A stretch of 64,000 bases of DNA from a virus, in the IMG/VR virus record IMGVR_UViG_3300042508_000428. One strand, given 5' to 3'. Under the pieces are notes generated by a model. That model had not been told where the DNA came from. It saw only the letters and a list, made by a program, of their open reading frames with translations, and did not search any database. The translations under genes and the position numbers were made by a program. This document shows positions 9,998 through 63,846 of the stretch, piece after piece (position 1 is the first letter of the stretch; every line of letters starts with the position of its first letter).

Positions 9998-10216
9998 ATG
10001 AAAATATCATATGAAAGATTAAATGAAATTATTGAAGAAGAAGTTTCTAGATTTAAAAATTTAAATGAACAAGTTGGTAATCCAACTCCTGTTGATTCTT
10101 CTACATTAAAACAACTAAATAGTTTGCTTGATGACGCAAGAAAATTTGCCACGATGAACCAAGCAAATGCTCTCGCAGTAATTTCAGCTGTTTCAAAATT
10201 TAAGGCAACACCATAA
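9998..10216 (+). CDS. Small putative internal head protein with IIEE...LNE leader
   Basis: MKISYERLNEIIEEEVSRFKNLNE; ACTAATTGT motif variant at 9972. Confidence 0.6.
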   Translation: MKISYERLNEIIEEEVSRFKNLNEQVGNPTPVDSSTLKQLNSLLDDARKFATMNQANALAVISAVSKFKATP

Positions 10217-10217
10217 T

Positions 10218-10808
10218 ATGAATAAATATGTTTTAACAGAATTTCTTGAACTTGATAACGATTCTTCTCTTCTAACAGAAGACGATAAGAGAATGATTGA
10301 AGCTGGCGATGTTATTCTTGCTGGCCGTTTACAAAAAGCAGATGCTAAGAACGGCAACGGCAGAGTTTATCCAAAGAGAACTCTCCAAAGAGAAGTGGAA
10401 AACTATAAAAAGCTTGTTCAAGAAAAAAGAGCATTAGGCGAATTAGACCACCCAGATTCTTCTGTTATTGAATTAAAGAATGCTTCTCACATTGTAACAC
10501 ACATTGAGATGAAAGGCGATGAAGTTGTTGGCAAACTAAGACTATTAGATACTCCAGCAGGTAGAATCGCTAAAGATCTTATTAAAGGTGGAGTCAAACT
10601 TGGTGTCTCTTCTCGCGGTCTTGGATCAACAAAAGAACAAAGCGGAGTTACGATGGTACAAGACGACTTCCAATTAATATGCTTTGACCTTGTTTCAGAA
10701 CCATCCACAACTGGTGCTTTCTTATTTAAAGAGCACAAAGAACCAAATATCTTTACAAAATCCGATAAGATTTATAGAGCAATAAACGACATTCTTATTG
10801 GAGAGTGA
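10218..10808 (+). CDS. Prohead core protease (T4 gp21-like)
   Basis: NGRVYP, LGELDHPD, GVSSRGLGS, FDLVSEPST motifs. Confidence 0.95.
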   Translation: MNKYVLTEFLELDNDSSLLTEDDKRMIEAGDVILAGRLQKADAKNGNGRVYPKRTLQREVENYKKLVQEKRALGELDHPDSSVIELKNASHIVTHIEMKGDEVVGKLRLLDTPAGRIAKDLIKGGVKLGVSSRGLGSTKEQSGVTMVQDDFQLICFDLVSEPSTTGAFLFKEHKEPNIFTKSDKIYRAINDILIGE

Positions 10809-10810
10809 TA

Positions 10811-11662
10811 ATGCTGAATGAAGCAATATTACAGAAAGAACTTTACAAGGAGTTAGAACAATTTTTAGCAAGTTCTAATTTCCTAGACGAAGATAATGAA
10901 TTTACTGATTCTGTGAGAGTTGCTGGTTATGGAGAGATTGAACAAACAGAAAGTGCTACTGCATTATCAAAAGCATTAAAAACATTCTTCAAAACCAAAA
11001 AAGTTCCTTTATCTGTTGTTGTATCTACGATAAATCCATCAGATGTTAAAATGGAACCATCCTCACAGACTAACGAACATCCAAATAATTATTTAATCGC
11101 TGCCGAAGCAGGATTAGATCAAAAAGGTAAGATGCAGTTGATACTTCATACTGCGGAAACCTCTGAAGATTTTAATCCGAGCTTAATGAATAAAGATAAA
11201 ATTATTCACAGCATAGCAACAGCAATTAGGCACGAACTAATACACGATAGGCAATACACTGGGTTGTCTAAGAAAATGGGTATTACAAGACCAGAGGCAA
11301 AACAAAAATACGAAGACTGGGGACAAATACCAGGAGCAGATACAGATAGAAAACAATACTTAGGAGCAGACATCGAACTAGATGCTTTTGGTCATGAGTT
11401 TGCTGAATTGCTTGCTCGCAATTTTGGCATAGATAAAGCGATGGAATTGGTCGCCACATCAGATTCTACAGAACTACAAAAAGTAGCAAAAGATATAGAT
11501 TTTGGCGATAATCTTAGAGAATATTATATAGACCATCCACAAGAAAGATTTACAGGCAAATTACAAAAGAAAATAAGAAAATATTTAAAGCATTTTAAAG
11601 ATCAACAGATTTATGAAAACTATTTATATAGTGTTTTGAGAAAAAATTTATTAGAAGGTTAA
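10811..11662 (+). CDS. Zincin-like (HExxH) protein, putative internal head protein
   Basis: IRHELIHDRQY and downstream IELDAFGHE; MLNE leader. Confidence 0.55.
   Translation: MLNEAILQKELYKELEQFLASSNFLDEDNEFTDSVRVAGYGEIEQTESATALSKALKTFFKTKKVPLSVVVSTINPSDVKMEPSSQTNEHPNNYLIAAEAGLDQKGKMQLILHTAETSEDFNPSLMNKDKIIHSIATAIRHELIHDRQYTGLSKKMGITRPEAKQKYEDWGQIPGADTDRKQYLGADIELDAFGHEFAELLARNFGIDKAMELVATSDSTELQKVAKDIDFGDNLREYYIDHPQERFTGKLQKKIRKYLKHFKDQQIYENYLYSVLRKNLLEG
11619..11627 (+). promoter_or_regulatory. Putative late promoter motif ACTATTTAT
   Basis: 45 nt before ATG 11664; would also drive bS21. Confidence 0.55.
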
Positions 11663-11663
11663 T

Positions 11664-12038
11664 ATGACAAAAAGTGAAATGAAAAAAATTATGAAACCAC
11701 TTGTAAAAGAATGTCTCCAAGAGATGCTTTTAGAAGAAGGTTTATTATCAAATCTTATTAGTGAAGTAAATAAAGGTAATAAAACTACCTTCTCTGAATC
11801 TTCTAGAAGAGATCCAACTCCTCTAAGACCAAGAGAGCAAGTTAAACCACAAGCAAAACCACAAATAAACGAAGTTAGAAGAAAATTAGCAGACTCCATA
11901 GGAAATGGAGCATATGCGAATGTCTTCGAAGGAATCGAACCAGCACCAAGTCCAAGTAATCTTGGAGGAGATAATGGAGATCCAGGACTGGATTTATCAG
12001 TCCTTAGTAACATCCCTGGATTAAAGGGATTTAAATGA
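11664..12038 (+). CDS. Hypothetical protein with LLEE leader
   Basis: MTKSEMKKIMKPLVKECLQEMLLEE. Confidence 0.65.
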   Translation: MTKSEMKKIMKPLVKECLQEMLLEEGLLSNLISEVNKGNKTTFSESSRRDPTPLRPREQVKPQAKPQINEVRRKLADSIGNGAYANVFEGIEPAPSPSNLGGDNGDPGLDLSVLSNIPGLKGFK

Positions 12039-12044
12039 GGCGTT

Positions 12045-12287
12045 ATGGCAAACAAGAGAGTTAATGTCGAAGTTAAACTAAGACTAGGCGAACATCAAGA
12101 TAAAATGATCAAAAGATTTCTTAATAAAGTTAAGAAAGAAAAGATTGTTGAAGAGTTACAAAATAGAAGATATTATGAAACTCCAACAGCAAAAAGATCA
12201 AGATTGAAGAATCGTAGAAAGAAAGTACTTGCTAAACTTCGTAGAGAAAGAGAAGCAATCGACAGACCAAAAGAAAAGAAAGATTAA
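12045..12287 (+). CDS. rpsU: Phage-encoded ribosomal protein bS21
   Basis: 80 aa, basic; V.V...E..DKMIKRFLNKVKKEKIVEELQNRRYYETPTAKR matches the bS21 pattern (RF..K......R.YYEKP). Confidence 0.85.
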   Translation: MANKRVNVEVKLRLGEHQDKMIKRFLNKVKKEKIVEELQNRRYYETPTAKRSRLKNRRKKVLAKLRREREAIDRPKEKKD

Positions 12288-12785: not shown

Positions 12786-14594
12786 ATGAGTTCAATGTTA
12801 GAGCAAGCAATTCTAGATGCTAAAGAATTAAAAGAAGCAGCAATTAAAAACGCCCAACAGTCCATTATCGAGAAATACTCTAATGAATTTGAAGGTGAGA
12901 TAGAAAAACTACTAGAACAAGCCGCTGCTCCAGCTGATCCCGCTGCGGCTGCTCCCGCTGCTGATCCAATGGCCGGTCTTGGTGCTGCTCCTGCGGCTGC
13001 TCCTATGCCCGGTATGACCATGCCAGGATCTGCTCCTGTTGATCCAGAAAAAGCAAAGTCAGACTCAGATAATAAATCTTCAATGTTTGATAAACTAAAT
13101 TATGCTTTTAAAGACGGAGAAGTAATTGAAGATAAAATTTTCCCAACAGGACTTGTTGAGGTAGATTTAGATTCTTTGTCAGAATTTAGTTTTGAAGATA
13201 ATAAAAAAACACCAGAACAAATGGCGTTACAAGAACTTAAAAACCTTTCTCTTAGAGAGCAGATTGAAGAAGAAATGAATGATGACGATGATTATGATTT
13301 CGATTCAGATTCTTTTCCATATGAAGACTCAGAAGAAGAAGATGATGAGAATGAAGAAGAATCAGAAGAAGACGAAGAACTAGACGACGAAGAATTCGAA
13401 GATGAAGACGAATTAGAAATGGACGATGAAGATTTTGAAGATAAAGATATGGAATCCGATTCGGATGAATTAGCAGATTTACAAGATTATAATGATGAAG
13501 GTAGTGTTGACCTAGAAGACGAAGAATCCGATATGGACATTGATATTGAAGACGAAGAGTTTACAGACGACGAAGATATGGAAGATGAAGATCTTTATGG
13601 CACAGAAGACGATGTAGGATTCCACGTTGATTACGATACAGACGAAGAGGATGAAGAATCCGAAGAAGACTATAATCCAGACGCTGACGTAGAAGATTTT
13701 GAAGATGAAGAGTCAGAAGAAGATGTAGACGAAGAAGAAGAGGACTCCGAGGAAGACGAAGAGGACGAAGAATATTATTATGACGACGAAGAGGAAGATT
13801 CTGAGGAAGACGAAGAAGATTCCGAAGAGGACGATGAGGAAGAATCAGAGGACGAGGAAGAAGATTTAGATGAAGCAAGAGATTTAACAGATAAAGAAAA
13901 GTCTAAACTTGACGATATTATTTCAAGATTAGAGAGAGCCTCTAAGTCTATCGAAAAAGGTAGTGCAAAGAATATGGTTGATGCTTCTGCTCGTCAACTA
14001 AAAGATCTACTAGATTCTCTTAAGGGTTCGGATAAAGAAGAACTACAAGAAGCTATTAAACTTGATTGGAAGAGATCTGGTCAAAGATCTCCATTCACCG
14101 GTATGTTTAAAGAAGAGGCAGAGCATGATTACATGCTAGAGCAAGTTCAAGCACAAATTGAAGCATTAGAACAAGAAGTCGAAGAACTTCAAGAATCTAA
14201 TAAAAAACTAAAAAGTGGTTTAAAAGAGTCAATTAATCTTGTTGAAAATTTAACTGATAAAGTTAAAAAATATGAACAAAAATTGCACGAATCAAGATTA
14301 TTGAATTATAAGCTACTATATACTAATAAGGCGCTATCAGATAGTTCCCTAAATGGACAGCAAAAAAATAAAATTGCTGAATCTATTGACGGTGCCAAGA
14401 CAGCTGAAGAAGTAAAATTGCTTTATGAAACATTAAAAAGCACAATGCGGGATGGAACCAGTAGAAGTACACCCAAATCATTGAGCGAGGCAGTTGAAAG
14501 ACGTTCTTCTTCACTTTTGCTAAGAGGCTCTCGTGCGGAGCCTAAGAAGCAAGATGATTTTGCTGAACGTATGAAACGGTTAGCAGGTTTATAA
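12786..14594 (+). CDS. Prohead core scaffolding protein (T4 gp22-like) with very long Asp/Glu tract
   Basis: Immediately upstream of MCP; coiled-coil C-terminus (QKNKIAESIDGAKTAEEVKLLYETL, RMKRLAGL); many LxE sites. Confidence 0.8.
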   Translation: MSSMLEQAILDAKELKEAAIKNAQQSIIEKYSNEFEGEIEKLLEQAAAPADPAAAAPAADPMAGLGAAPAAAPMPGMTMPGSAPVDPEKAKSDSDNKSSMFDKLNYAFKDGEVIEDKIFPTGLVEVDLDSLSEFSFEDNKKTPEQMALQELKNLSLREQIEEEMNDDDDYDFDSDSFPYEDSEEEDDENEEESEEDEELDDEEFEDEDELEMDDEDFEDKDMESDSDELADLQDYNDEGSVDLEDEESDMDIDIEDEEFTDDEDMEDEDLYGTEDDVGFHVDYDTDEEDEESEEDYNPDADVEDFEDEESEEDVDEEEEDSEEDEEDEEYYYDDEEEDSEEDEEDSEEDDEEESEDEEEDLDEARDLTDKEKSKLDDIISRLERASKSIEKGSAKNMVDASARQLKDLLDSLKGSDKEELQEAIKLDWKRSGQRSPFTGMFKEEAEHDYMLEQVQAQIEALEQEVEELQESNKKLKSGLKESINLVENLTDKVKKYEQKLHESRLLNYKLLYTNKALSDSSLNGQQKNKIAESIDGAKTAEEVKLLYETLKSTMRDGTSRSTPKSLSEAVERRSSSLLLRGSRAEPKKQDDFAERMKRLAGL

Positions 14595-14625: not shown

Positions 14626-16455
14626 ATGGCAAGTATAGTCGAAAGATTAACAGAAAATATTGTTGAAAGAAATCTCCTTCGTGAAGGCGCTGCCCTCTCA
14701 AAGAAATGGGAAAGAACAGGTCTTCTAGAAGGAATCGATAGTGAGATGACAAAGACAACCATGTCTCGTCTTCTCGAAAATCAAGCAAAGGAACTACTCC
14801 GCGAAGCTTCCACAATGTCCGCAGGTGACGTTGAAGGTTTCGCAGCAGTTGCATTCCCAATTGTTAGACGCGTATTCGGTGGTCTAATTGCAAATGAACT
14901 CGTTGCAGTTCAACCAATGAGCCTCCCAAGCGGTCTAATCTTCTTCCTTGATTTTACCTATAGCAATGACACAGGAAACAAAACATTCGCTGGTGCAGTC
15001 GGTGGCCAATCTATTTACGGCGGTAACGTTGTAGCTAGCCAAATCACTGGTGGTGTTAGCTTAACTGGTGTTGATGCAAGTGGCGTACAAAACCTAGAAA
15101 AGAGCTTCTACTCTTTAAATAACGGTTTCTCAAGCGTAACTGGCTCAAGAGTGCTTAATCATTCTTGGAATTATGGCAACGCTGGTAAGGCTGGTGCATC
15201 TTCTACGGTTGTTGTTTACCAAACTTCCAGCTGGACAGACGTTGGTCTATCAACTGCTACAGGTAGTTCATTAACTGGCTCAACAGATGCAGCGTTCGTC
15301 GCATACGATCCAGATGTTCTTGCAGACACTTCTGCTTTAACATACCAAAAATTAAGACTATTCTTTGATTTGGGAACTTGGAATCAACTAGATAGAAATA
15401 ATCTAGTAGCAATCAACATTACTGGTTCAACAATTTCTGGTTCATTGGTTAGAAGACTAACTAAATTGGGTCCAGTAAGCCAATCTTTAGATGTAGTTGT
15501 TAAAACAGATGCTGGTGCTCCAATTTCAGAAGTTGGTGTTGCCCCATCTATTGCATCAACAACTTTTGCAATTAGGGATACATTAACAACTGGTAATTCT
15601 ATAGGTTCTGTTCTTACCGATCTATATGGTCTAGAAGGCGCTGGATCTGGTTCAACATTGAATGGTCAGGATATTCCTGGGGCTAACTTTACAATTCCAG
15701 AGATTGACATCAAAGTTGATAGCATCGCTGTAACAGCTCAAACCAAGAAACTCAAGGCCAAGTGGTCACCAGAATTAGGTCAAGACCTAAATGCTTACCA
15801 TAATCTTGACGCCGAAGTTGAGTTAACAAGCATCCTCTCCGAGCACGTTGCTCTTGAAATCGATCAAGAAATCCTCAACGATCTCGTTAAGGGTGCAACA
15901 GCTGGTACTAAGTACTGGAGCCGTAGACCAGGTAAGTTTGTCAACCGTGACACAGGTGCAAGCATCACATCAGTTGGTGCCCCACCAGACTTCACAGGTA
16001 ATGTCAGCATGTGGTATGAAACACTCATTGAAACAATCAATGACGTTTCTGCTCAAATCCACAGAAAGACAAGACGTGGTGGTGCAAACTTCCTCGTAAC
16101 TTCACCAGAAGTTGCTAACCTCCTAGAGTTCACCTCTGGTTTCCGCGCTGATGTCAGCATGGAAGACCTAAAGGGCGGTTCAGTTGGCGCAGTCAAGGCT
16201 GGTAGCCTCAGCAAGAAGTTTGATCTTTATGTTGATCCATATTTCCCACGCAACCTAATCCTAGTTGGTCGTAGAGGCAAGGCATTCCTCGAAAGCGGTT
16301 ATGTCTACGCTCCATACGTCCCACTAATGATTACACCAACAATCTTCGGTACAGAAGACTTTGTACCAAGAAAGGGTCTAATGACTCGCTACGCCAAGAA
16401 GATGGTTCGTCCAGACATGTATGGCCTAGTAGTTTGCCAAGACCTAATTGGTTAA
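14626..16455 (+). CDS. Major capsid protein (T4 gp23-like) with central insertion
   Basis: VQPMSLPSGLIFFLD, KLKAKWSPELGQDL.AYH, ESGYVYAPYVPL, DFVPRKGLMTRYA motifs. Confidence 0.97.
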   Translation: MASIVERLTENIVERNLLREGAALSKKWERTGLLEGIDSEMTKTTMSRLLENQAKELLREASTMSAGDVEGFAAVAFPIVRRVFGGLIANELVAVQPMSLPSGLIFFLDFTYSNDTGNKTFAGAVGGQSIYGGNVVASQITGGVSLTGVDASGVQNLEKSFYSLNNGFSSVTGSRVLNHSWNYGNAGKAGASSTVVVYQTSSWTDVGLSTATGSSLTGSTDAAFVAYDPDVLADTSALTYQKLRLFFDLGTWNQLDRNNLVAINITGSTISGSLVRRLTKLGPVSQSLDVVVKTDAGAPISEVGVAPSIASTTFAIRDTLTTGNSIGSVLTDLYGLEGAGSGSTLNGQDIPGANFTIPEIDIKVDSIAVTAQTKKLKAKWSPELGQDLNAYHNLDAEVELTSILSEHVALEIDQEILNDLVKGATAGTKYWSRRPGKFVNRDTGASITSVGAPPDFTGNVSMWYETLIETINDVSAQIHRKTRRGGANFLVTSPEVANLLEFTSGFRADVSMEDLKGGSVGAVKAGSLSKKFDLYVDPYFPRNLILVGRRGKAFLESGYVYAPYVPLMITPTIFGTEDFVPRKGLMTRYAKKMVRPDMYGLVVCQDLIG

Positions 16456-16546: not shown

Positions 16547-18418
16547 ATGAAAAAACTTTTATTATCTTTATTATTGTTGACTGCATGTGGCGACGATTTA
16601 GGTTGGGAACACAAAGAAACAAAACACGATTGTGCTGATGCAGTTGTTGGAGACAGCGGTGTTTGTAATTTATGTCAAGACGTAACGGAGACAAAAGATG
16701 AGCAATCTGGAACAGAAGAAGTTGTTAGCGATGTTGCTGACAGTACCCAAAGTGACGTTCTCGCTGACAGTGGGAGCGATGACGCTGACGTTTCTGTCCC
16801 TGATGGCGTTACAGGAACGGACACAGAAGATACGCAAGATGCACAAGATGTACCAGAAGATGTAACTCAGGACGTTGCTCCACCACCAGAATGTGTTACG
16901 GCGACCGATTGTGTCGTTATAGCTTTGCCTTGTGTGGCACCAGATTGCCAAGAAGGTAAGTGTGTTAAAGTTCCATTTGATACACCATGTTCCGATAATA
17001 ATGAATGTACGGCAGGCGATCAATGCCAACTTGGTGTATGTGTTGCTGGTATTCAAATTAATTGTGACGATCTAGAATCTTGCACATTAGATTCTTGCGA
17101 GGCAGATAAAGGTTGCGTACATTTGCCAGTTGATGCAACTTGTGTCGATGGAGATGGTTGCACCGCAGAAGATATTTGCAAAGATGGTAAATGTGTAGGC
17201 GGTAAACCATTTAATTGCGATGATGGAAATGTTTGCACAGATGATACTTGCGAGACATTTGGTAAGGATGAAATTCATGTTTGTAATCATTTGCCAAATC
17301 AAGCGACTTGTACAGACAACGATGTTTGCACATTAGATGATGCCTGTGAGGGTGTTGTTTGCAAATCAAAAGCAGTTGCTATTTGTGATGATAATAATGT
17401 TTGTACAGACAATACTTGCGATCCAGCAAATGGTTGTGTTTATTTAGCAAATGTAGCAACTTGTACCGACAATGACGCTTGTACTGTGAATGATTTATGC
17501 TCCGAAACTGTTTGTAAATCTGGATTAGTATTAAGTTGTGCAGATAATAATGAATGTACAACTGATCTATGCAAGTCAGAATCAGGTTGTTATTTTGAGA
17601 ATAACACAAATGTTTGTAGCGATAATAATGTTTGTAGCATTGACGATAAGTGTGAGGCAGGATCATGTATTGCTGGCGCTCAAAAGGTTTGTGATGACGC
17701 TAATCTTTGCACCGTTGATTCATGTGATGCTGTAAATGGATGTGCTTCCGTAAATGCTGTTGATGGTACAAAATGTGCTGAAGGCGTCTGTAAAGACGGC
17801 TCTTGTGCTTGTGTAAGCGGGTTTGGCTGTGCTTTGCCTGCCTTCGTATATACTGGCGATGTGACTGCTGGTATGTTAGGAGGAATGGGTGGTGGTGTCG
17901 GTCCAAAGATGGGTTGCCCTGCTACTGATGTTTTAATCGGTTTAGGTTTTGATTTCAGTAATGGTCAAAAAACAGCCACTAGAACAACTGCCGTTTGTGG
18001 TAAAGTTACAATTGAACAAAATGGAACTGTCATAACAACTCAAACAACTACACAAAAATCAGGTGGTTCTGGATGTTTTGGTTGGGATCCTTCAACTCCA
18101 ACTCCGCTTGTAGTTTGCAAGAGTGGTTGGGCTGTTGTTGGTATTAAAGGCAAAAAACCCGGAGGCACTCTATTCAATTCTGTAAAAGTTGTTTGTGGTA
18201 AACTCGATGTTGCTGGCAAACCAACTGGCGAGACAGAAGTTTTAAATGTAGAAGGAACACTAGGCTCAGGTGTTGATCAAGAAGTATTATGCCCAGAAAA
18301 AACAATTGCTCGTTATTTTGAGACAAGAGCTGGTTGTGGGCAAGATGCTTTGACTATGTATTGTGCTACTGCAACACCAGATTGTACTGGTCAAGAATTA
18401 ATTTGTAAGGATTTATAA
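16547..18418 (+). CDS. Cys-rich repeat lipoprotein with C-terminal jacalin-like (beta-prism lectin-like) domain
   Basis: Start re-assigned to 16547; signal MKKLLLSLLLLTAC (lipobox), acidic linker, ten C-x-D-x-x-x-C-T repeats, three-fold C-P...G...C pattern at the C-terminus. Confidence 0.7.
   Translation: MKKLLLSLLLLTACGDDLGWEHKETKHDCADAVVGDSGVCNLCQDVTETKDEQSGTEEVVSDVADSTQSDVLADSGSDDADVSVPDGVTGTDTEDTQDAQDVPEDVTQDVAPPPECVTATDCVVIALPCVAPDCQEGKCVKVPFDTPCSDNNECTAGDQCQLGVCVAGIQINCDDLESCTLDSCEADKGCVHLPVDATCVDGDGCTAEDICKDGKCVGGKPFNCDDGNVCTDDTCETFGKDEIHVCNHLPNQATCTDNDVCTLDDACEGVVCKSKAVAICDDNNVCTDNTCDPANGCVYLANVATCTDNDACTVNDLCSETVCKSGLVLSCADNNECTTDLCKSESGCYFENNTNVCSDNNVCSIDDKCEAGSCIAGAQKVCDDANLCTVDSCDAVNGCASVNAVDGTKCAEGVCKDGSCACVSGFGCALPAFVYTGDVTAGMLGGMGGGVGPKMGCPATDVLIGLGFDFSNGQKTATRTTAVCGKVTIEQNGTVITTQTTTQKSGGSGCFGWDPSTPTPLVVCKSGWAVVGIKGKKPGGTLFNSVKVVCGKLDVAGKPTGETEVLNVEGTLGSGVDQEVLCPEKTIARYFETRAGCGQDALTMYCATATPDCTGQELICKDL
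16988..17743 (+). repeat. Ten tandem ~25-aa Cys-rich repeats
   Basis: SDNNECT, DDLESCT, VDGDGCT, DDGNVCT, TDNDVCT, DDNNVCT, TDNDACT, ADNNECT, SDNNVCS, DDANLCT. Confidence 0.9.
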
Positions 18419-18420
18419 CA

Positions 18421-19371: not shown

Positions 19372-19377
19372 GATAAT

Positions 19378-21441: not shown

Positions 21442-21444
21442 CAA

Positions 21445-43159: not shown

Positions 43160-43168
43160 ACTATTTAC
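43160..43168 (+). promoter_or_regulatory. Putative late promoter motif ACTATTTAC
   Basis: 30 nt before ATG 43190. Confidence 0.65.
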
Positions 43169-43189
43169 TAGTACATTGAGGAGAAATCT

Positions 43190-43918
43190 ATGGAAGCTAA
43201 GTTTTTAAGAAAAATTATTTTAGAAGAACTAAAAAAAGTTTTAAAAGAAGTTGATTACCCAGATATTCCAGGATCAGAACCGGGACAAACAAAGAGTCCT
43301 TATCAAAAAGGTGCGACATCTAGAACGTCGAGACCAGCGATTAGTCGAAACGCAGTAGAAATTATGAAAATTCAAAGAGCTTTAAGAAAAATAATGGGAG
43401 AAGAATATAGAAGTTCTTGGCCCCAGGTTAATGGTAAACTAGATAAGCGTACAAGCAGACTTATAAAAATACTTTATCCAAGATTAAACCTTGATAAAAT
43501 TACAAATTTCAGAGCTTTATCTGCGGTTTTCGAACAGAGAGTTCAAAGAGGTGGTACATCAATAGCTGGAGAAACTTTTGATCAAATTCTTGATAAAGCA
43601 GTTGCTGCAGCGGAGCAACGAAGAGCAAGTGCTTCTGCTGGAATGGGTAAAGATACAGAAATTACCGCCGATTCACCAATGCCCACTAATGATTCAGGTC
43701 TACCAAAATCTCCTGATGATGTTTATGTACCGTTCACCGATAAAGAAACAATGGATAAAATGATTGGACCAAAAAAAGGATTTACCAGAGACCCTGATGC
43801 ATTAAAAGATACTGGTCCTAAAAAAGGAGAAGAAGAAGATATTAAAGTTAACTTACAAGATCCAATGAAACAAGAAGCATTAGTTAGAGCAATCAGCAAA
43901 CTTCTCAAAAAACTCTAA
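43190..43918 (+). CDS. Putative internal head protein with IILEE...LKE leader
   Basis: MEAKFLRKIILEELKKVLKE; late motif; inserted between helicase and RNR. Confidence 0.55.
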   Translation: MEAKFLRKIILEELKKVLKEVDYPDIPGSEPGQTKSPYQKGATSRTSRPAISRNAVEIMKIQRALRKIMGEEYRSSWPQVNGKLDKRTSRLIKILYPRLNLDKITNFRALSAVFEQRVQRGGTSIAGETFDQILDKAVAAAEQRRASASAGMGKDTEITADSPMPTNDSGLPKSPDDVYVPFTDKETMDKMIGPKKGFTRDPDALKDTGPKKGEEEDIKVNLQDPMKQEALVRAISKLLKKL

Positions 43919-47150: not shown

Positions 47151-47208
47151 TTAATCTACTTTTTGATAAAATACAAACTATATATTTTAGTCAGAAAGGA
47201 GACAAAAA

Positions 47209-47484
47209 ATGACAGACAATCAACTCAAAAAAATAATTTTAAATGAAATAAAAAATTTGTTAAATGAGCAAAGCGAATCGGATGTAAATGCTAATCTACA
47301 AACCCTTGTACAAGGTGCTAAATATCTAAGAGATAGACTTAAATCAGATCCGAGAGCAAGTGGTGTATTGTCTGCAATCGACAGTCTTATTAGGAAAGCA
47401 TATCCACAATATGAACAAATGTTAAATAAACAATCTGCAGGACAAGCTGGGTATAATCCAGAAACTGGTAAAAAAATTCCTTAA
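47209..47484 (+). CDS. Putative internal head protein with IILNE...LNE leader
   Basis: MTDNQLKKIILNEIKNLLNE; motif variant ACTATATAT at 47177; AGGAG SD. Confidence 0.55.
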   Translation: MTDNQLKKIILNEIKNLLNEQSESDVNANLQTLVQGAKYLRDRLKSDPRASGVLSAIDSLIRKAYPQYEQMLNKQSAGQAGYNPETGKKIP

Positions 47485-47551: not shown

Positions 47552-47560
47552 ACTATTTAG
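47552..47560 (+). promoter_or_regulatory. Putative late promoter motif ACTATTTAG
   Basis: 40 nt before ATG 47592; variant CCTATTTAA at 47893 precedes 47946. Confidence 0.65.
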
Positions 47561-47591
47561 TTTGGTGGCTTTTTGCTTTGGAGGATCCTAA

Positions 47592-47942
47592 ATGAAACTA
47601 CCTATTGTTATTGAAGATTCTTGGGTCCCTGGTTTTCTATCCAAATTTGCCAATGCAAATTTTATTGCTAACTCTTTCGCAATCTTTATTTTCTTTCGTG
47701 GAAAGATAATTGAAAAAACTTGGCGACATGAAATGATTCATTACAGACAACAAAAAGAGTTATTCTTTGTTGGTCAATGGATTTTGTATGCTTATTATTA
47801 TCTCGTTTGTCTTTACAAGCACAAAGATAGATATAAAGCTTATAGAGAGAACCCATTTGAAAAAGAGGCTTATGCCAATGACACTGATCCAACCTATTTA
47901 ATTAAGAGAAAAAAGTACGCTTGGAAAAATTACAGAGGATAA
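47592..47942 (+). CDS. Small HExxH zincin-like protein
   Basis: RHEMIHYRQQ...AYRENPFEKEAY. Confidence 0.6.
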   Translation: MKLPIVIEDSWVPGFLSKFANANFIANSFAIFIFFRGKIIEKTWRHEMIHYRQQKELFFVGQWILYAYYYLVCLYKHKDRYKAYRENPFEKEAYANDTDPTYLIKRKKYAWKNYRG

Positions 47943-47945
47943 ATA

Positions 47946-50717
47946 ATGGATAACCAACAAGTCCCAAAAGCGGACAGCAAATTCCAGAAAATAGCAAGAA
48001 AAAATCATAGAAAATGGAAGATTCGCTTACTATCAAAAGGCGGTCAAAAAGCCGATAGTGGTGGTGGACCATATAGTAAAAAACCAGATTATAATAGAGC
48101 AAAGTCTGCCCCTCCTGGATTTGGTGGTTCATTAGAAGAAGCAGAACAACTTGATGAAGTTATCAGAAAGAAAGATGGAAAGTATTGTTTGTTTTCTAAA
48201 AAAACAAACAGAAATTTAGGTTGTTATCCAACAAGGGCAGGAGCAATGAAAAGAGAGAAACAGGTTCAATATTTTAAACATCTCAAAGAAAATCAACATA
48301 ATGAAATTATTAACGAAGAATTATATCAAACTCTTTTAGAAGAAGGATTCTTAGATATGGTTGTTGATGCCATAGGATCAGGATCTACTTGGGTAAAAGA
48401 CAAATTGTTTTCTCTTCTTGGAGTTAGCGATGAAAAAGAAAAGAAAGGAATTTTAGGTTTTCTTACTTCTAAACTAGATACGAAGGAAGAAGTTGAGACT
48501 GCAGAAAAAAATGAAAAGCAAATAGAACAAGAATTAAAAGATTATATACAAAAAGAAAAAAATAAAAACAAAGGCAAAAAAGCATTAATATATGGTCATA
48601 GTCAAGCCGGAGGAGTTGGTCTTGGTCTTAAGTCTGCACTCAAATCCGTTGGTTATGATGTAAATCTTGTTATTAAAAATAGTGCAAATGACAGTCGATT
48701 ATTGAGAGAGATAGGTGACGCTGGAGATCCAAAACAATATGATAAAGTATATTTGTTTGTGGGTGGAAATTCTCCATATATTCCAAAAGTAGATTTGATT
48801 TCTTCTATGATTAATTTGTTTGGTCCAGAAAAAACGTCAATTGTGCTTCCTCCTACGAATATAGACAAATATAAAGTTGCCGACATAGGATCTAGAAACA
48901 AAGCAAACAAAGAAGGAATCCTCCAGAGATTCGGAGGAGTAGTAAAAGTTTATATTCCGTATGGTCACTCAAATGATTTTTCGGACGGAATACACATGAA
49001 TCATAATGCTCTTGGAACAAAAAGATTCATACAGGATATTTTTGCTGAAAAACCAAGCATACCGCCAGAAAAGCAAGGTATTAAAACCACAAGCGCAGTT
49101 GTAAAAAATTCTTTAAGCAGAAGGCAAAGAGAGATGGCAGGTTTAATTGAAAAGAGATTTATTGAAGCAGGATTGTCAAAAAATTTAGCACTAGCTGCTA
49201 TTGTAAATTCTTATTATGAGTCTAGTTTAAACCCAAGTGTAACTGGGGATCGCGCCGAGAAAGTTGATGGGCGTTGTGCTAGACAAGTTGAAGAAAAAGA
49301 AGGTCCAAAATCTCCATGTGGAGGAGGATTGTTTGGCATTCATTCTTGCGGAGGTATGGGAGGCTGTAGAGCTACTGGAAATGGTATGTCAATAGAAGAT
49401 ATAAAAGACCCAGAAAAAAGTATTTCAACAATGATAAATTATATAAAAAGAAAAGGATTTGATAAGAAAAACTTAGAAAATTCTGTTGAAGATATAACTT
49501 ATAATTTTTGTTACAGTTTAGAAGTTCCTAAAAATAGATTGATTAAATGCAGAAACAGAGCCAATTCTGTTTCACAAGTTCTTGAAATGTCTAATTTAAC
49601 TGAATCTAAAAAAATTACAATCAAGTTTGGTCAACAATTAACAGAGGGCAAGACAAAAGGTAAAGAAGATCGTTGTACTCGTATAGCAAAGAGCAAATAT
49701 GATGCTTGGCCTTCTGCTTATGCTTCTGGTGCTGTTGTTAAATGTCGTCAAGGCAAGATCTGGAAGAACATAAAAGAAGAGGAAGAATTAGACGAGACAA
49801 AGAAAAAAGCAAAACACGTCGCGAAGAAAGCGTTAGCATTGTGGCTTGCTGGTTCAACTGCGACAACCCCTCCGCCAGATGCAACAAAACCAGTAAAAAA
49901 AGCTTCTACATCTAAAGATGAAATAAAAGAAGAGTGGTCTGATTCTGAGAGAAAGAAGAGAAAAGCAAACTGTTCCAATCCAAAAGGCTTCACAATGAAG
50001 CAGTTCTGCAAGAATCAAAGAACAAAATCGAAAGAAGGTCAAAAGAAAAATGAAGAAATTCAGCTAAATGAAAAATGCTGGGAAGGTTATACTCAAAAAG
50101 GCATGAAAACAATGTTTGGAAAAAAATATCCAAACTGTGTAAAGAAAACAAACGAAGCAAAAGATCCAAAAGTTGGAACAGGTAAAAAACCAGAAGGTTC
50201 TGATCGTCGCTTATACACTGACGAAAATCCAAAAGATACTGTAAGTGTAAAATTTTCTACAGCAGAAGATATAAGAGATACTTTATCAAAAGAGTCTTTT
50301 AAATCAAAACCACATGCTCGTCAATCACAAATTATTAATCTTATTCACCAAAGAGTTCGTGCTGCTTACGAGAACGCTAAAGATCCAGAGGTTAAGTCCA
50401 GATTGAAAATTGCTCTTGATTATGCTGAAAAAAGAAAAGAGGCATCCAAGAAAAAGACAGAAGCAATGAAAGAGCTTGATGAGCGTAAACTTGGCAAACC
50501 TTCCAGCGAAACCAATTTAGGCGATTGGTTTAAAAGAAAAGGTGCCCCCGGAAAAGGCGGTGGCTGGGTAGATTGTAACACTTGTCGTGATGGAAAATGT
50601 AAGCCATGTGGCAGACAAGAAGGTGAAAAAAGAAGCAAATACCCTCGTTGCCGTCCAACACCTTCACAGTGCAAGGGCTATAAGAGAAGAGGCGATAATC
50701 TTCAAAAAGAGGAATGA
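47946..50717 (+). CDS. 923-aa modular protein: SGNH-hydrolase-like domain, phage-tail-lysozyme-like domain and many short basic Cys-containing modules separated by (L/I)xE sites
   Basis: YGHSQ...GGN...DGIH (about 48580-49000); AGLS...ALAAIVNSYYESSLNP...GLFG (about 49120-49580); modules WPSAYASG, CSNPKGFTMKQFC, CWEGY...PNCV, GTGKKP...LYTDENP, WF...WVDC...CGR...YPRCRP. Confidence 0.7.
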   Translation: MDNQQVPKADSKFQKIARKNHRKWKIRLLSKGGQKADSGGGPYSKKPDYNRAKSAPPGFGGSLEEAEQLDEVIRKKDGKYCLFSKKTNRNLGCYPTRAGAMKREKQVQYFKHLKENQHNEIINEELYQTLLEEGFLDMVVDAIGSGSTWVKDKLFSLLGVSDEKEKKGILGFLTSKLDTKEEVETAEKNEKQIEQELKDYIQKEKNKNKGKKALIYGHSQAGGVGLGLKSALKSVGYDVNLVIKNSANDSRLLREIGDAGDPKQYDKVYLFVGGNSPYIPKVDLISSMINLFGPEKTSIVLPPTNIDKYKVADIGSRNKANKEGILQRFGGVVKVYIPYGHSNDFSDGIHMNHNALGTKRFIQDIFAEKPSIPPEKQGIKTTSAVVKNSLSRRQREMAGLIEKRFIEAGLSKNLALAAIVNSYYESSLNPSVTGDRAEKVDGRCARQVEEKEGPKSPCGGGLFGIHSCGGMGGCRATGNGMSIEDIKDPEKSISTMINYIKRKGFDKKNLENSVEDITYNFCYSLEVPKNRLIKCRNRANSVSQVLEMSNLTESKKITIKFGQQLTEGKTKGKEDRCTRIAKSKYDAWPSAYASGAVVKCRQGKIWKNIKEEEELDETKKKAKHVAKKALALWLAGSTATTPPPDATKPVKKASTSKDEIKEEWSDSERKKRKANCSNPKGFTMKQFCKNQRTKSKEGQKKNEEIQLNEKCWEGYTQKGMKTMFGKKYPNCVKKTNEAKDPKVGTGKKPEGSDRRLYTDENPKDTVSVKFSTAEDIRDTLSKESFKSKPHARQSQIINLIHQRVRAAYENAKDPEVKSRLKIALDYAEKRKEASKKKTEAMKELDERKLGKPSSETNLGDWFKRKGAPGKGGGWVDCNTCRDGKCKPCGRQEGEKRSKYPRCRPTPSQCKGYKRRGDNLQKEE

Positions 50718-51250
50718 TGATAAAAATAATACTTGAATCAAAAAAGAAATATGTCCAAGTTCCTCTACCTGTAAAAAAGACAGATCTTGAGCCTGTTATG
50801 TCTTCTGACACAATTGATTACCACTATGGTTCGCTTTACAAAGGTTATGTCGATAAAGCTAACAAAGGTGTAGGTGGTGAGTTTCAAAAAGCAGGAGCTT
50901 TTCTTCACAACATTTGGTTCTCTCAGTTCAAGAAACCATCAAATCAAAAACCAGACGGTTTATTTCTTGAGCTTGTAAATAGAAAATATGGTTCTTATGC
51001 TTCTTTTCAAAAAGAACTCAAAGAAGTCGCAATGAAAATTCAAGGTTCTGGTTGGGTTTACACGGATAAGAACGGCAATATAAAGACCATTGCAAACCAC
51101 GAAATAAAACCAGACATTATCTTATTAATTGATTGGTGGGAACACGCTTGGGCATTAGATTATCAGGCAGATAAAGAAGAGTATTTAGACAACATTTACA
51201 AAGTTATTGATTGGAATGTTATAAATGCTCGTTTAGCGACGGAGAAATAA
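50714..51250 (+). CDS. sod: Fe/Mn superoxide dismutase with extra N-terminal IILE leader
   Basis: LEPVMS.DT.DYHY, LHNIWF, GSGWV, IDWWEHAW (metal ligands H, H, D, H). Confidence 0.9.
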   Translation: MMIKIILESKKKYVQVPLPVKKTDLEPVMSSDTIDYHYGSLYKGYVDKANKGVGGEFQKAGAFLHNIWFSQFKKPSNQKPDGLFLELVNRKYGSYASFQKELKEVAMKIQGSGWVYTDKNGNIKTIANHEIKPDIILLIDWWEHAWALDYQADKEEYLDNIYKVIDWNVINARLATEK

Positions 51251-51888
51251 TGTCTTCTTCAAACATAAATTTACCTCAAACAAAAGTTTGGATTCGTGGC
51301 GATGCGTGGGGAAACTCAAAGGAAGAGTTTGATGAAGCTTGGCTTGTTTCGGTTAGAGCATTGAGAGGTGGACCTTTATGCTTCCAAGTGTTTGTTCCAA
51401 GATACTCTGCTTGCTATGATAAAATACCTATTCAGTGTTTATACTGGAAACTACCAGAACTTGGAGTTAGACATTATAGAATGAGTGAACTACAAATGTG
51501 GGAATCTATTTCTGGTGAAATAGAGTTTTGGAGAAAAGAGCTTTTAAAAGAATGTGAAGTTGCAATCAGAATAGAAAATAAAACATTCACCAAGGGACAT
51601 TACTGGTTTACCATAGATTTTATTCCAGAAAAAAGAGGATCAGGCTATTATGATGTTGGTTGTTCCTCTGTGTTGGAAGAACATAAAGAAGGAAATGTAA
51701 TAAGATTACACAATGGTCAAATAGCTGTTTATCCAAATAATAGAATTAAATGGCTAGAAGCGAGCTTGTCCACAGAAGATTCTTTATATTCAATCCCGCC
51801 TTGGAGCGTCGCAGAAGACATCAAGTGGTTAGAAGAATGGAAACAGATAGATAATAATTTATATGGTGATGAGGATTGGTATTATTAA
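51250..51888 (+). CDS. Conserved-looking hypothetical phage protein
   Basis: Start re-assigned to ATG 51250 (TAATG coupling); Trp-rich, YPNNRI motif. Confidence 0.6.
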   Translation: MSSSNINLPQTKVWIRGDAWGNSKEEFDEAWLVSVRALRGGPLCFQVFVPRYSACYDKIPIQCLYWKLPELGVRHYRMSELQMWESISGEIEFWRKELLKECEVAIRIENKTFTKGHYWFTIDFIPEKRGSGYYDVGCSSVLEEHKEGNVIRLHNGQIAVYPNNRIKWLEASLSTEDSLYSIPPWSVAEDIKWLEEWKQIDNNLYGDEDWYY

Positions 51889-51891
51889 TAA

Positions 51892-51900
51892 ACTATTTAG
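51892..51900 (+). promoter_or_regulatory. Putative late promoter motif ACTATTTAG
   Basis: 30 nt before ATG 51922, AGGAG SD. Confidence 0.65.
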
Positions 51901-51921
51901 TATAATTGTAGGAGAGTAACA

Positions 51922-52815
51922 ATGAGAGTTGAGAAATGGGATATTTTGATGCACCGCCTTCTAACAGAAAAGAAGGAAAAAGAAGAAAAAGCAAGCAAAT
52001 CGAAAGGTTCAAAGCCAGATTTTCTTGATTTAGATAAAGACGGTGATACTTCTGAACCAATGAAGAAGGCATCAAAAGAGTCGGGTGGTAAAAAAGAAAC
52101 AAAATCCAAGAAAGGAAAAGGCAAGATCCCTCCTCAACTAAAAATGCACATCAAGAAAAAGAAAAACAAACTTGATGAAGCAATTGAGAGACTAGAAAAA
52201 ATTCTTTTTGAACAACACGATCTTCAAGAATATGGAGAAGATAAACACCCTGATATTGAAGACGACGATGATGATTTTGATGCTGATGATCTGCCATCCT
52301 ATGGTGAAGAAGACTTTGGTGATTATGGCGAAGAAAGTATGAGAAAATTTGCTCAAAAATCAAAAAATTTTGCAGATAAATACACCGAAGAAGATGACTA
52401 TGAAGAAGAGGAAGAAGAAGATTACGAAGACGAAGATGATTTTGAAGATGATGATGATATGGAGGACGAAGAAGTTGAAGATGATGATGATATGGATTTA
52501 GATGATGAAAATGATATGGAAGAATATCTAACCGAAGCAGAGGTTAAGAAAAAACAACCACGACTTGGTAAAGTAACTCGTAATCCATCCGGCTCAAAAA
52601 AAAAGTTTCACGTCTACGTTAAATGTGGCGGAAGAGTAAAGAAGATCTCATTCGGTGATCCAGGATTATCAATTAAAAGAGATTCTGCTGCCCGTAGAAA
52701 GAACTTTAGAGCAAGACATAAGTGTGATCAACCAGCAGGAAAAGATCGTTGTACAGCGAGATATTGGTCTTGCTATCAATGGAGAGCAGGAAAGAAGGTT
52801 GAAGGCGAGGAGTAA
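51922..52815 (+). CDS. Putative internal head polyprotein: basic module, acidic tract, C-terminal basic Cys-containing domain
   Basis: LLTE leader; PDFLDLDKDGD.SEPMKKA; LDE, LQE, LTE sites; KKFHVYV...FGDPGL.I...RRKNFRARHKC...TARYWSC. Confidence 0.6.
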   Translation: MRVEKWDILMHRLLTEKKEKEEKASKSKGSKPDFLDLDKDGDTSEPMKKASKESGGKKETKSKKGKGKIPPQLKMHIKKKKNKLDEAIERLEKILFEQHDLQEYGEDKHPDIEDDDDDFDADDLPSYGEEDFGDYGEESMRKFAQKSKNFADKYTEEDDYEEEEEEDYEDEDDFEDDDDMEDEEVEDDDDMDLDDENDMEEYLTEAEVKKKQPRLGKVTRNPSGSKKKFHVYVKCGGRVKKISFGDPGLSIKRDSAARRKNFRARHKCDQPAGKDRCTARYWSCYQWRAGKKVEGEE

Positions 52816-53669: not shown

Positions 53670-53671
53670 AA

Positions 53672-54016: not shown

Positions 54017-54041
54017 CAACAACAATAACTTGTCGTATCAT
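54013..54041 (+). promoter_or_regulatory. sigma70 promoter TTGACA-17-TATCAT
   Basis: Precedes thyX. Confidence 0.75.
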
Positions 54042-54064
54042 AGACCCAAACTTAGAGAGGTCTT

Positions 54065-61976: not shown

Positions 61977-62286
61977 TCTGCTTAGATTTAAAAGCAAAGT
62001 TGATAAAAACATTCCATTTATTGTAAAGTTCAAGAGCGATGGTTGTCCAATCTGTGTTGATCTTGAACCAGATTTCCAAGCAGTTGCTCAATCATTCCCA
62101 CAGTTAGGCTTCTACGACGTAGATATAAACGAAGAGGAAGACCTAGCAGATCTTTTTATTGAAGACGGAGTTCCGACACTTTATTACATTAAAGGAAAAC
62201 ACTTCAAAGAATTACCATATCCTCAAAATGGATTTGACAAAGATTCTCTAACCTCAGTTATCAAAGATATTTTAAATGGAAAATAA
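61957..62286 (+). CDS. Thioredoxin-like protein
   Basis: VKF...GCPIC active-site-like CxxC, GVPTL. Confidence 0.8.
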   Translation: MKTKKLDLLRFKSKVDKNIPFIVKFKSDGCPICVDLEPDFQAVAQSFPQLGFYDVDINEEEDLADLFIEDGVPTLYYIKGKHFKELPYPQNGFDKDSLTSVIKDILNGK

Positions 62287-62614
62287 AAAACTATCAGAAA
62301 ATTACCAGAAAAGAATTGTTGTTAATCTCTCTGAATATGAATACGGAGAGTTTATGGCAAATCTTAAATATGAAAACGTTAATCATCCCGCTAAATTAGT
62401 TCGCTTCTTCATAGAACTTTATTTAGCGGGAGACAAAGACGTTAGAAGTATTGTAGAAAGTTATAAACAAAAAAATAAAATTGCTGGTAGAGCAAAAAAA
62501 GATTATATTATTAAACAAGAGACGCTTGCCAAGAATACCGAAAAGTTATATAATCTAAGTGAAGATGACATAGATGATATTTATGATCTGCTTGACGAAG
62601 ACTTTCCAGACTGA
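62276..62614 (+). CDS. Hypothetical protein (possible ribbon-helix-helix-like regulator)
   Basis: RIVVNLSEYEY...LVRFFIELY pattern; weak. Confidence 0.45.
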   Translation: MENKKLSENYQKRIVVNLSEYEYGEFMANLKYENVNHPAKLVRFFIELYLAGDKDVRSIVESYKQKNKIAGRAKKDYIIKQETLAKNTEKLYNLSEDDIDDIYDLLDEDFPD

Positions 62615-62620
62615 GGTATA

Positions 62621-62863
62621 ATGAATTGCGACGAAATCTGTGAGAAAACAAATACTCCCTGTGATATATCTGATTGTAGAAACTATATAGATTATAAAGA
62701 TGATCTAAATTGTGTATTGGTTTGTACAAGAAAAAACGGACCTTTAACTCTTGAAGAAGTTTCTAAACGACTCGGAGTATCTTATGTTCGCATAAAGCAG
62801 ATTGAAGAAAAGGCAATGTCAAAGATAAAATCAAATGTGCGAAATTGTGATGAGGTCATTTAG
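62621..62863 (+). CDS. Stand-alone sigma70 region-4 HTH protein with Cys-rich N-terminus
   Basis: LTLEEVSKRLGVSYVRIKQIEEKAMSKI; six N-terminal Cys. Confidence 0.8.
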   Translation: MNCDEICEKTNTPCDISDCRNYIDYKDDLNCVLVCTRKNGPLTLEEVSKRLGVSYVRIKQIEEKAMSKIKSNVRNCDEVI

Positions 62864-62873
62864 TTTTTTCGAT

Positions 62874-62882
62874 ACTATTTAT
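62874..62882 (+). promoter_or_regulatory. Putative late promoter motif ACTATTTAT
   Basis: 34 nt before ATG 62908, AGGAG SD. Confidence 0.65.
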
Positions 62883-62907
62883 TATGATTTCTTAAGGAGA
62901 AACTATA

Positions 62908-63846
62908 ATGGCGAAACGTAAAGATTTACTTTTAACAGAATCAACAACAATGAGAATGATGGGACTTGCTGGTATTGGTTCCCTAGCAAATCCGTTTTTG
63001 AGAGAAGGCGCGAATGTAGATACAGCAGAGGATCCAAATAGTGTTGACTTTGATATGGACGACATGGGTGACATGGATGACATGGGCGATGTTGACATGA
63101 TGGAAGAAGGTGAAGAGCTAGATGAAATGTATGGCGAAGAAGACTCAATGATGGAAGAATCATACGAAGAAGAGATGGAAGAAAATCTCTATGAAGGCGA
63201 AGAAGACCTAGAAGAAGCAAAGAAAAAACCACATGGCGATGGTGATGATAGTGATGATTATGAAGAAGACGAAGATCTAGAAGAAGCAAAGAAAAAAGAA
63301 AAATGCCCACACTGCCATAAAATCCACGAAGGAGATTGTGGGGCGATGAAGGAAAGTATTCGTAGAAGCATGAGTAGATTAAAGAGACTTCTAGAACAAG
63401 CAGAAACCGATGCGCCACCACCACCAGCAGCAGAACCACCACCAGCAATGGAAGGTGGAGATCAAATGGAAGCAAAGATTAAAGAGTTCGTAAAGAAACT
63501 TGGTGAATTAGTACAAGAAACACTAGGCGTGGAAGTTAAGGTTGAGGAAGAAGGTGAAGAAGAAATGGAGCCAGCAGAAGGCGGAGAGGGCGAAGAACCA
63601 GCAGGCGCATCACCTCCACCACCAGCCGCTCTACAAGAGGCAATTGACCGCCTAGTTAATAAAGTTGCTCTCAGAGTTAAGGCTCGTTTAATGGAAGCAA
63701 AGAAAGATCCAAAAGCTGCAGCAAAAGCTAAGAAAATGATGAAAGAAAAGCAAATGGCTGCAAAGAAAAAAGAGAAAGAAGAAGCTGCCAAGAAAAAAGA
63801 AATGATGATGAAGAAAAAGAAAGCAGCAATGGCTAAGAAGAAATAA
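62908..63846 (+). CDS. Putative prohead core/internal protein, acidic body with Lys/Met/Ala-rich tail
   Basis: LLLTE leader, repeated LDE/LYE/LEE/LLE/LQE/LME sites, RMMGLAGI motif resembling the scaffold end RMKRLAGL. Confidence 0.6.
   Translation: MAKRKDLLLTESTTMRMMGLAGIGSLANPFLREGANVDTAEDPNSVDFDMDDMGDMDDMGDVDMMEEGEELDEMYGEEDSMMEESYEEEMEENLYEGEEDLEEAKKKPHGDGDDSDDYEEDEDLEEAKKKEKCPHCHKIHEGDCGAMKESIRRSMSRLKRLLEQAETDAPPPPAAEPPPAMEGGDQMEAKIKEFVKKLGELVQETLGVEVKVEEEGEEEMEPAEGGEGEEPAGASPPPPAALQEAIDRLVNKVALRVKARLMEAKKDPKAAAKAKKMMKEKQMAAKKKEKEEAAKKKEMMMKKKKAAMAKKK

Follow-up and report, generated by a model that had tools for sequence, protein, structure and literature searches.

The window analyzed in this work, that is, the whole stretch of 64,000 nucleotides (64 kb) from the IMG/VR virus record IMGVR_UViG_3300042508_000428, carries T4-type virion and replication genes and, dispersed among them, genes whose products begin with a short leader ending in (L/I)-x-E. 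According to the original prediction, at least ten open reading frames (ORFs) placed behind a late-type motif share such a leader, which would act as a portable address tag loading unrelated proteins into the phage head. The analysis reported here partly confirmed that observation and partly supported its interpretation; in particular, the computation supports the existence of a portable N-terminal tag, ending in (L/I)-x-E and borne by unrelated late-motif proteins, in a phage possessing a gp21-type protease.

Every credible gene of the window lies on the + strand (Table 1). The T4-type head and tail module, identified by means of PHROG and Pfam, also includes tube proteins, and it is followed downstream by a replication module in which PHROG recognized a PolA-like gene, a gp32-like single-stranded DNA-binding protein, UvsX, and a DnaB-type helicase. 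On the basis of the capsid protein, the nearest cultured phages are Flavobacterium phage immuto, Microcystis phage Mel-JY01, and RM378, each sharing less than 50% identity with it, and a megablast search of positions 43000-54100 against the phage collection returned no match. The comparison was based on closer, uncultured relatives, namely G001 (72 kb, syntenic with the window between 36.5 and 64 kb), G002 (115 kb), G003, and the two complete genomes G004 (191 kb) and G007 (195 kb), the latter two sharing 54-57% identity with the window in the capsid protein and 58% in the DnaE polymerase. The window belongs to an uncultured marine lineage of T4-like myoviruses with a DnaE-type polymerase and a gp21-family prohead protease. 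The protease, which is presumably the enzyme that would process the leaders, is 82% identical to its G002 orthologue. In an alignment made by eye, the N-terminus of the capsid protein matches that of T4 gp23 segment by segment, with L-R-E/A occupying the T4 maturation site L-T-E/A (the slash marks the cut); judging from this position, the specificity of the protease, and thus the T4 cleavage rule, has probably been kept in the phage of the window.

Table 1. Features of the window discussed in the text; genes are named by the position at which they start.
Feature	Coordinates	Strand	Evidence or remarks
Large terminase	1705-3285	+	PHROG/Pfam
gp20-like portal	3295-5346	+	PHROG/Pfam
9998, 72-aa head-module protein	9998..10216	+	just 5' of the protease (position of T4 gp67/gp68)
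gp21-type prohead serine protease (Peptidase_S77)	10218..10808	+	phrog_207, 1.4e-52; PF03420, 89.8 bits (cut-off 27)
10811, 283-aa accessory protein	10811..11662	+	after the protease; starts M-L-N-E; no family match
11664, 124-aa head-module protein	11664..12038	+	between protease and scaffold
gp23-like major capsid protein	14626..16455	+	N-terminal propeptide; phrog_138, 1e-69
Sheath	24589-27528	+	PHROG/Pfam
Late motif (43160-43167), Shine-Dalgarno site, and F1 leader (codons 1-20 of 43190)	43160..43249	+	F1 matrix score 39.9
43190, F1-tagged cargo, 242 aa	43190..43918	+	family alignment A2
Late-motif variant ACTATATA and 47209, 91-aa orphan	47177..47484	+	F1 leader (codons 1-20); F1 matrix score 39.4
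Late-motif operon: 47592 (116 aa), 47946 (923 aa), 50714 (superoxide dismutase), 51211 (ferredoxin-like)	47552..51888	+	motif at 47552
50714, Fe/Mn superoxide dismutase	50714..51250	+	8-residue N-terminal tag ending I-L-E, then Lys-rich linker
Late motif and 51922 (297 aa)	51892..52815	+	16-aa N-terminus ending L-T-E
52815, F2-tagged cargo, 284 aa	52815..53669	+	leader, codons 1-15; leave-one-out rank 1
53672, 114 aa	53672..54016	+	first 16 residues end L-T-E
DnaE-like polymerase, 1134 aa	56910-60314	+	58-77% identity to related-contig genes
Late motif and 62908 (312 aa, acidic, low complexity)	62874..63846	+	11-aa N-terminus ending L-T-E/S-T-T

Two portable leader families

All ten ORFs listed in the original prediction exist, with N-termini as described; however, the tripeptide alone does not discriminate tagged from untagged proteins. 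Indeed, [LI]xE falls within the first 25 residues of 24 of the 69 + strand proteins, against 15.7 +/- 3.5 in per-protein shuffles; it is present in 25% of internal 25-aa windows, and over whole proteins it was observed 285 times, 212 being expected. The bare tripeptide in the first 25 residues is therefore weak evidence of a tag. When N-termini were aligned pairwise, only the pair 43190 and 47209 stood out (score 49), the rest being noise. The two leader subtypes that had been perceived turned out to be real once they were defined more tightly and tested on the relatives, and a tag shared by ten ORFs was reduced to three (43190, 47209, and 52815) belonging to two demonstrable families, hereafter F1 and F2, the other leaders being either family-specific or very short.

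The F1 leader, an amphipathic motif of 16 residues ending in L-x-E (consensus h-L-[RK]-K-h-h-L-x-E-h-[KQ]-x-h-L-x-E), heads 43190 and 47209 in the window. A family-weighted position-specific scoring matrix (PSSM) run over 597,000 six-frame positions gave 11 matches of at least 29 bits, the next best scoring 13.5; all 11 are N-terminal, lie on the coding (+) strand two to five residues past a Met, and end in L-x-E, and one of them (G002 112863) was absent from the training set. When families were left out one at a time, each omitted family was regained at rank 2-4. In the relatives, the motif heads further proteins without any relationship by BLASTP, and with the F1 PSSM six N-terminal matches were obtained in the complete genome G004 and two in G007. 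Within the window itself, the BLASTP similarity between 47209 and 43190 is limited to residues 6-26, and a search with 47209 among 1.8 billion representative proteins retrieved no real homologue, the only matches being spurious ones to repeat proteins. Three other candidates for F1 membership (9998, 11664, and 50714) were discarded, each scoring below 10 with the F1 PSSM.

The proteins of the 43190 family share a nearly invariant N-terminus of 20 residues, in which L18 and E20 never change, and a C-terminal helix of 13 residues, separated by a hypervariable middle (alignment A2); a peptidoglycan-binding domain (PF01471) is recorded in the homologues P0016 and P0017. The middle is swapped wholesale between relatives, and the C-terminal helix is amphipathic; by analogy with the C-terminus of T4 Alt, this helix may represent a second docking or processing element.

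The F2 leader, with the core L-h-E-[NS]-W-x-[RK]-[FY] and the end [LI]-x-E (consensus M-K-x-L-[LF]-E-[NS]-W-x-[RK]-[FY]...[LI]-x-E), heads 52815 in the window. Among the 11 homologues of 52815 in alignment A1, down to 32% identity, E15 never varies and position 13 holds either L or I throughout, and an unrelated 392-aa protein of G001 matches 52815 only over residues 1-15, ten of which are identical. In the leave-one-out test, cargo families a, b, e, and f retrieved one another at ranks 1-6; the same test did not recover 53672 and 51922, which were therefore not grouped with F2. A hidden Markov model (HMM) built from six F2 leaders of the window clade found 13 matches in G004 and G007, below which there was only noise; all 13 lie at the 5' end of an open frame, nine of them directly at the Met. 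A degenerate DNA pattern for the core hit 67 sites in IMG/VR, 24 of which lie four or six residues past a Met and belong to ten cargo clusters, including a 2H phosphoesterase, a HAD domain of the RNA-repair type, and DUF2441. About 35 further sites were rejected as tags, being an unrelated internal motif of the tail-tube family phrog_45: this motif (F-E-N-W-I-x-F-I-V-N-E), located about 114 residues into the protein, mimics the F2 core (IMG/VR loci L042-L105, e.g., L043:3809-4561).

HMMs restricted to a single orthologue set found few out-of-family leaders and were replaced by family-weighted PSSMs and HMMs. IMG/VR scans using 52815 or 43190 as single proteins yielded no relatives; these were retrieved by alignment A1 and by the DNA patterns. 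A tblastn search of a 22-aa leader against the phage collection gave no match, a fold search with the model of 52815, the sole model searched, gave no significant one, and a literature search on the F2 core motif returned no relevant paper.

Taken together, profile scans, leave-one-family-out tests, and related contigs establish F1 and F2 as portable N-terminal leaders. They were found only at N-termini, on more than 20 cargo proteins that are not homologous to one another, and where other phages possess homologues of these cargo domains, they are devoid of the leader, so that the alignments begin at residue 23-95. A chance resemblance between helices is excluded as the explanation of the similarity within F1 and F2. 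Moreover, the leader copies diverge at many synonymous codon positions, and therefore selection has acted on the peptide rather than on the DNA. Each complete related genome possesses about 7-13 tagged genes. In G004, 13 genes with F1 or F2 leaders form an array (reverse complement of 96,000-118,800, loci L133-L134), clustered rather than dispersed, whose cargo includes a P-loop protein and HAD-like proteins.

Expression signals, the superoxide dismutase, and other leader genes

The sequence ACTA[TA]TTA occurs 19 times on the + strand of the window and three times on the - strand, typically 28-40 nt 5' of start codons. It precedes the structural genes at 600, 12318, 12786, 16547, 21458, 21928, and 24589, as well as 45863, 47592, and 60371, and from this placement we infer that motifs of this type are late promoters. 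The claim that all the listed leader genes lie downstream of the motif holds only if operon membership is allowed: the motif is directly upstream of 11664, 43190, 47209 (as the variant ACTATATA), 51922, and 62908; 52815 and 53672 share the operon behind 51922, and 50714 is downstream of the motif at 47552; that of 9998 is 181 nt upstream, inside an ORF, and 10811 has none of its own. A comparison of leader genes with the others bore out the association, in that 10 of the 15 supported leader genes have the late motif ACTATTTA within 60 nt, against 29 of the 361 other ORFs (odds ratio 23, p=1e-7), and the remaining five lie downstream of late-motif genes.

Five sigma70-like sites, all on the + strand, agree at 11 or 12 of 12 positions. 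Four of these best sites fall in gaps preceding replication-module genes (40500, 43920, 46068, and 54013) and the fifth (53382) lies inside gene 52815, while weaker ones precede 39339 and 36518. The first of them, at 40500-40529, is a perfect 12/12 promoter (TTGACA, 18-nt spacer, TATAAT) embedded in the listed ORF 40500-40838, which is probably the promoter region of the gene at 40831 rather than a gene. The positions of the two kinds of signal indicate that late and early units are interleaved, as had been proposed, and no replication enzyme carries F1 or F2.

Among the cargo proposed originally, the superoxide dismutase (SOD) encoded by 50714 received independent support as a tagged protein, from its predicted structure, from the leaders of its clade, and from the virion record of a homologue, whereas the labels "zincin" and "PcfJ-like" found none in Pfam or PHROG. 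Judging from its domains (Sod_Fe_C, 5.8e-21, 74.9 bits, cut-off 20.9; Sod_Fe_N, 5.1e-08, 33.7 bits, cut-off 27) and from the metal-site motif (H37, H65, D140, and H144, invariant in 26 homologues), 50714 encodes a genuine Fe/Mn SOD. In the AlphaFold model (mean predicted local distance difference test score, pLDDT, of 88.6), residues 1-9 score below 50 and the remainder of the enzyme about 90, which places the tag outside the predicted fold. The viral clade to which this SOD belongs comprises at least 588 IMG/VR loci, and among the N-termini inspected many start with a leader of 9-20 residues ending in [LIV]-x-E, which precedes the SOD core; Peptidase_S77 (S77) is encoded in all three of the SOD contigs whose completeness reaches 80% or more. 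In G001 another gene takes the place of the SOD, and the likeness of its N-terminus to the SOD tag was set aside, being too short to weigh.

A homologue of the SOD with about 40% identity, the hypothetical protein EST35_0261, is found in phage PA5oct, which also encodes Peptidase_S77; its N-terminus of 13 residues ends in I-A-E/A, and its GenBank entry carries the note "ESI-MS/MS" (electrospray ionization tandem mass spectrometry). In PA5oct, 93 gene products have been linked to virion particles (PMC7318152), and this note marks EST35_0261 as one of them. Its mass spectrometry record represents the sole experimental hint that tagged cargo resides in virions.

As for the neighbors of the SOD in its operon, the 923-aa protein 47946-50717 shares phrog_727 and phrog_9737 with an F2-tagged 435-aa protein of IMG/VR (L073) and gives a weak match to phage-tail lysozyme; although neither F1 nor F2 heads it, this protein may be carried in the virion. 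The gene directly 3' of the SOD, 51211-51888, encodes a ferredoxin-like auxiliary protein (phrog_3704, 7.8e-37), and 47592-47942, behind the late motif, matches phrog_15610, annotated "protease" (7e-22), its N-terminal part appearing hydrophobic by eye.

For five of the remaining listed genes (9998, 11664, 51922, 53672, and 62908), it is plausible that the leaders are family-specific propeptides, each conserved within its own family only. Protein 9998 has an N-terminus of 24 residues ending in L-N-E, and only residues 1-24 align with the G002 orthologue (87.5% identity). The orthologues of 11664, whose late motif lies 45 nt upstream and whose N-terminal helix contains L-Q-E and L-L-E-E, adjoin the protease in G002, G004, and G007, and 11664 is a candidate prohead core protein. 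In 51922, the leader, which is kept in G001, is followed by Lys-rich and acidic linkers and by a small basic C-terminal domain (phrog_7595) that is a stand-alone protein in many marine phages; this Cys-containing domain (residues 203-293) stands alone in pelagiphages, in roseophages, and even in spindle-shaped viruses of Nitrosopumilaceae. Protein 53672 shares only its first ~19 residues with its G002 and G003 counterparts. The N-terminus of 62908, conserved in G001 and G002, was likened to the propeptide of T4 gp24 as read from the T4 record, a resemblance and nothing further. The case for 10811 as a tagged protein is weak: four residues (M-L-N-E) are indistinguishable from chance and thus too short to judge, and its G002 homologue is located outside the head module.

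Two other features of the head module were observed. A homologue of ribosomal protein bS21 (Pfam Ribosomal_S21, 6.8e-10) is encoded at 12045-12287, downstream of the prohead protease and ahead of the scaffold candidate at 12786-14594; an S21 gene is likewise present in PA5oct, where it precedes the SOD homologue by a few genes. The region 16547-21973, flanked by the capsid and the neck genes, comprises four genes in a row with lipoprotein or Sec signals, preceded by a late motif at 16524; the equivalent place in G002 is occupied by an F1-tagged acidic protein of 144 aa and by one lipoprotein.

Interpretation of the leaders and alternative explanations

A question concerns the role that these leaders might play. 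We suggest, with a probability of about 0.62, that leaders of the F1/F2 type are T4-style capsid-targeting propeptides removed by the gp21-type protease. According to this idea, late-transcribed accessory genes would carry N-terminal propeptides of 8-20 residues acting like the T4 capsid-targeting sequence; during prohead assembly the amphipathic leader would dock the protein onto the scaffolding core, the protease would cut after the Glu of the terminal (L/I)-x-E, and the mature cargo would be kept in the head and enter the cell with the DNA, the two leader classes being exchangeable between unrelated cargo. Docking, cleavage, retention in the virion, and ejection of the tagged proteins are, in this scheme, steps that we infer. 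Consistent with it, S77 is encoded in each of the five IMG/VR contigs that bear F2 and reach a completeness of 66% or more.

Several points weigh against capsid targeting. The co-occurrence of leader and S77 is partly expected, in that most contigs of large marine myoviruses are T4-like, and (L/I)-x-E is common in a proteome as rich in Lys, Glu, Leu, and Ile as that of the window. The invariant C-terminal helix of the 43190 family is left unexplained by a purely N-terminal tag, and, according to the AlphaFold model of 52815, a long helix (residues 2-26) begins with the leader and runs into the domain, so that the leader is not obviously a detachable tail. Cultured cyanomyophages and pelagimyophages are devoid of the F2 core, and neither F1 nor F2 is known from a cultured phage. 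Lastly, the list of PA5oct virion proteins also holds enzymes that its authors call virion-unrelated (PMC7318152), so that contamination is possible.

The continuity of the 52815 helix, together with a GroEL-like protein that G001 and G002 appear to encode (judged by its N-terminal sequence), would suit a role of the leader in recognition by a different shared partner, such as a modifying enzyme (acting as in RiPP-like or radical-SAM tag systems), a phage chaperonin, or a factor for localization at the membrane or cell pole, the (L/I)-x-E being incidental. We consider this unlikely, since the last Glu of the leader and the L/I preceding it by two residues never vary, the tags go together with late promoters and fit the T4 tag in length, position, and chemistry, and a tagged SOD homologue is reported from virions; as for modifying enzymes, Radical_SAM (PF04055) has no match in the complete G004, despite its 13 tagged genes, or in G001-G003, and G007 alone has one. 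It is even less probable that the leaders are ordinary amphipathic helices involved in the fold or oligomerization of each protein and alike by composition and chance. This would apply mostly to 9998, 10811, 11664, 51922, 53672, and 62908, which the F1 PSSM and the F2 leave-one-out test either rejected or did not cover, and it draws on the modest enrichment of the bare tripeptide and on pairwise N-terminal scores that stay within noise. However, F1 and F2 matches are separated from noise by a very large gap and every one of them is N-terminal, the predicted fold of the SOD does not include its tag, and 9998 and 53672 keep only their first 19-24 residues while the remainder diverges, which is unusual for a plain structural helix.

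Mobile promoter cassettes exist in T4-like phages, and the shared 5' ends might in principle have been spread by recombination as DNA cassettes comprising a promoter, a ribosome-binding site, and the initial codons, the encoded peptide having no function. Most tagged genes do share their late motif and, at a constant spacing, a strong GGAG site, and the cargo differs at syntenic positions in the relatives; nevertheless, the leader codons vary synonymously while the residues remain constant, the start of the SOD gene and that of its G001 replacement cannot be aligned at the DNA level as a shared flank, and leaders are also found on operon-internal genes without their own promoter. An origin of this kind is, in our opinion, very improbable.

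Turning back to capsid targeting, it is conceivable, though we regard it as doubtful, that F1 and F2 are lineage-wide address codes, from which the whole set of proteins injected by uncultured marine T4-like phages could be read; enzymes not known to be carried in virions, such as SOD, RNA-repair-type 2H and HAD phosphoesterases, and P-loop kinases, would be part of it. Each of the two classes might send cargo to different sites of the scaffolding core or set different copy numbers, and F2 might mimic the K-W-x-x-L-L-E segment of the capsid protein propeptide. If the tags worked as in T4, it would be possible to predict, from the sequences of a marine lineage that is abundant but uncultured, which proteins are delivered with the DNA. 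The predicted set would then represent the first weapons in infection (counter-defence, RNA repair, protection from oxidative stress, and wall binding), the SOD would be a virion-delivered enzyme and not a cytoplasmic auxiliary metabolic gene, and new short tags would become available for loading foreign proteins into T4-like capsids.

Comparison with T4 and with giant phages

The principle that the leaders would follow is that of T4 capsid targeting, varied, and not a new one. In T4, targeting sequences are 10-19 residues long, with positions 4 and 7 involved in targeting and positions 8 and 10 in processing, and the internal proteins are diverse except for this conserved sequence (PMC9026906, PMC3012670). 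As in IPI, IPII, IPIII, and Alt of T4, all processed by gp21, the lineage of the window shows a short N-terminal propeptide on otherwise unrelated proteins, an (L/I)-x-E end after which the next residue is mostly small or polar, a gp21-family protease in the head module, and a variable cargo set. The leaders of F2 and of the SOD clade resemble MKTYQEFIAE/A, with which T4 IPII and IPIII begin according to the T4 record, in their Met-Lys start, aromatic residue, and h-x-E end; this likeness concerns only length and chemistry, the peptides being too short for a homology test.

The differences from T4 are equally clear. The leaders of this lineage are longer (14-20 aa) and fall into two distinct classes without demonstrable homology to the T4 tag; tagged genes are more numerous per complete genome (the 7-13 mentioned above, against a few in T4); in the window they are scattered between replication operons behind their own late motifs, whereas T4 has internal-protein loci. 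The cargo, known here from sequence alone, extends to SOD, 2H-phosphoesterase and RNA-repair-type HAD domains, and a peptidoglycan-binding domain.

The giant phages phiKZ, 201phi2-1, and SPN3US have ejection and inner-body proteins with propeptides; a gp21-related protease cuts after the Glu of a three-residue motif, and the N-terminal propeptides presumably direct these proteins to the prohead (PMC5694885). The motifs are, however, (S/A/G)-x-E or A-x-E, and most of the propeptides exceed 100 residues, whereas those of the window are T4-sized and end in (L/I)-x-E. The SOD homologue of PA5oct, a Pseudomonas jumbo phage of another family, parallels the SOD of the window in having a leader that ends in h-x-E in a phage encoding S77.

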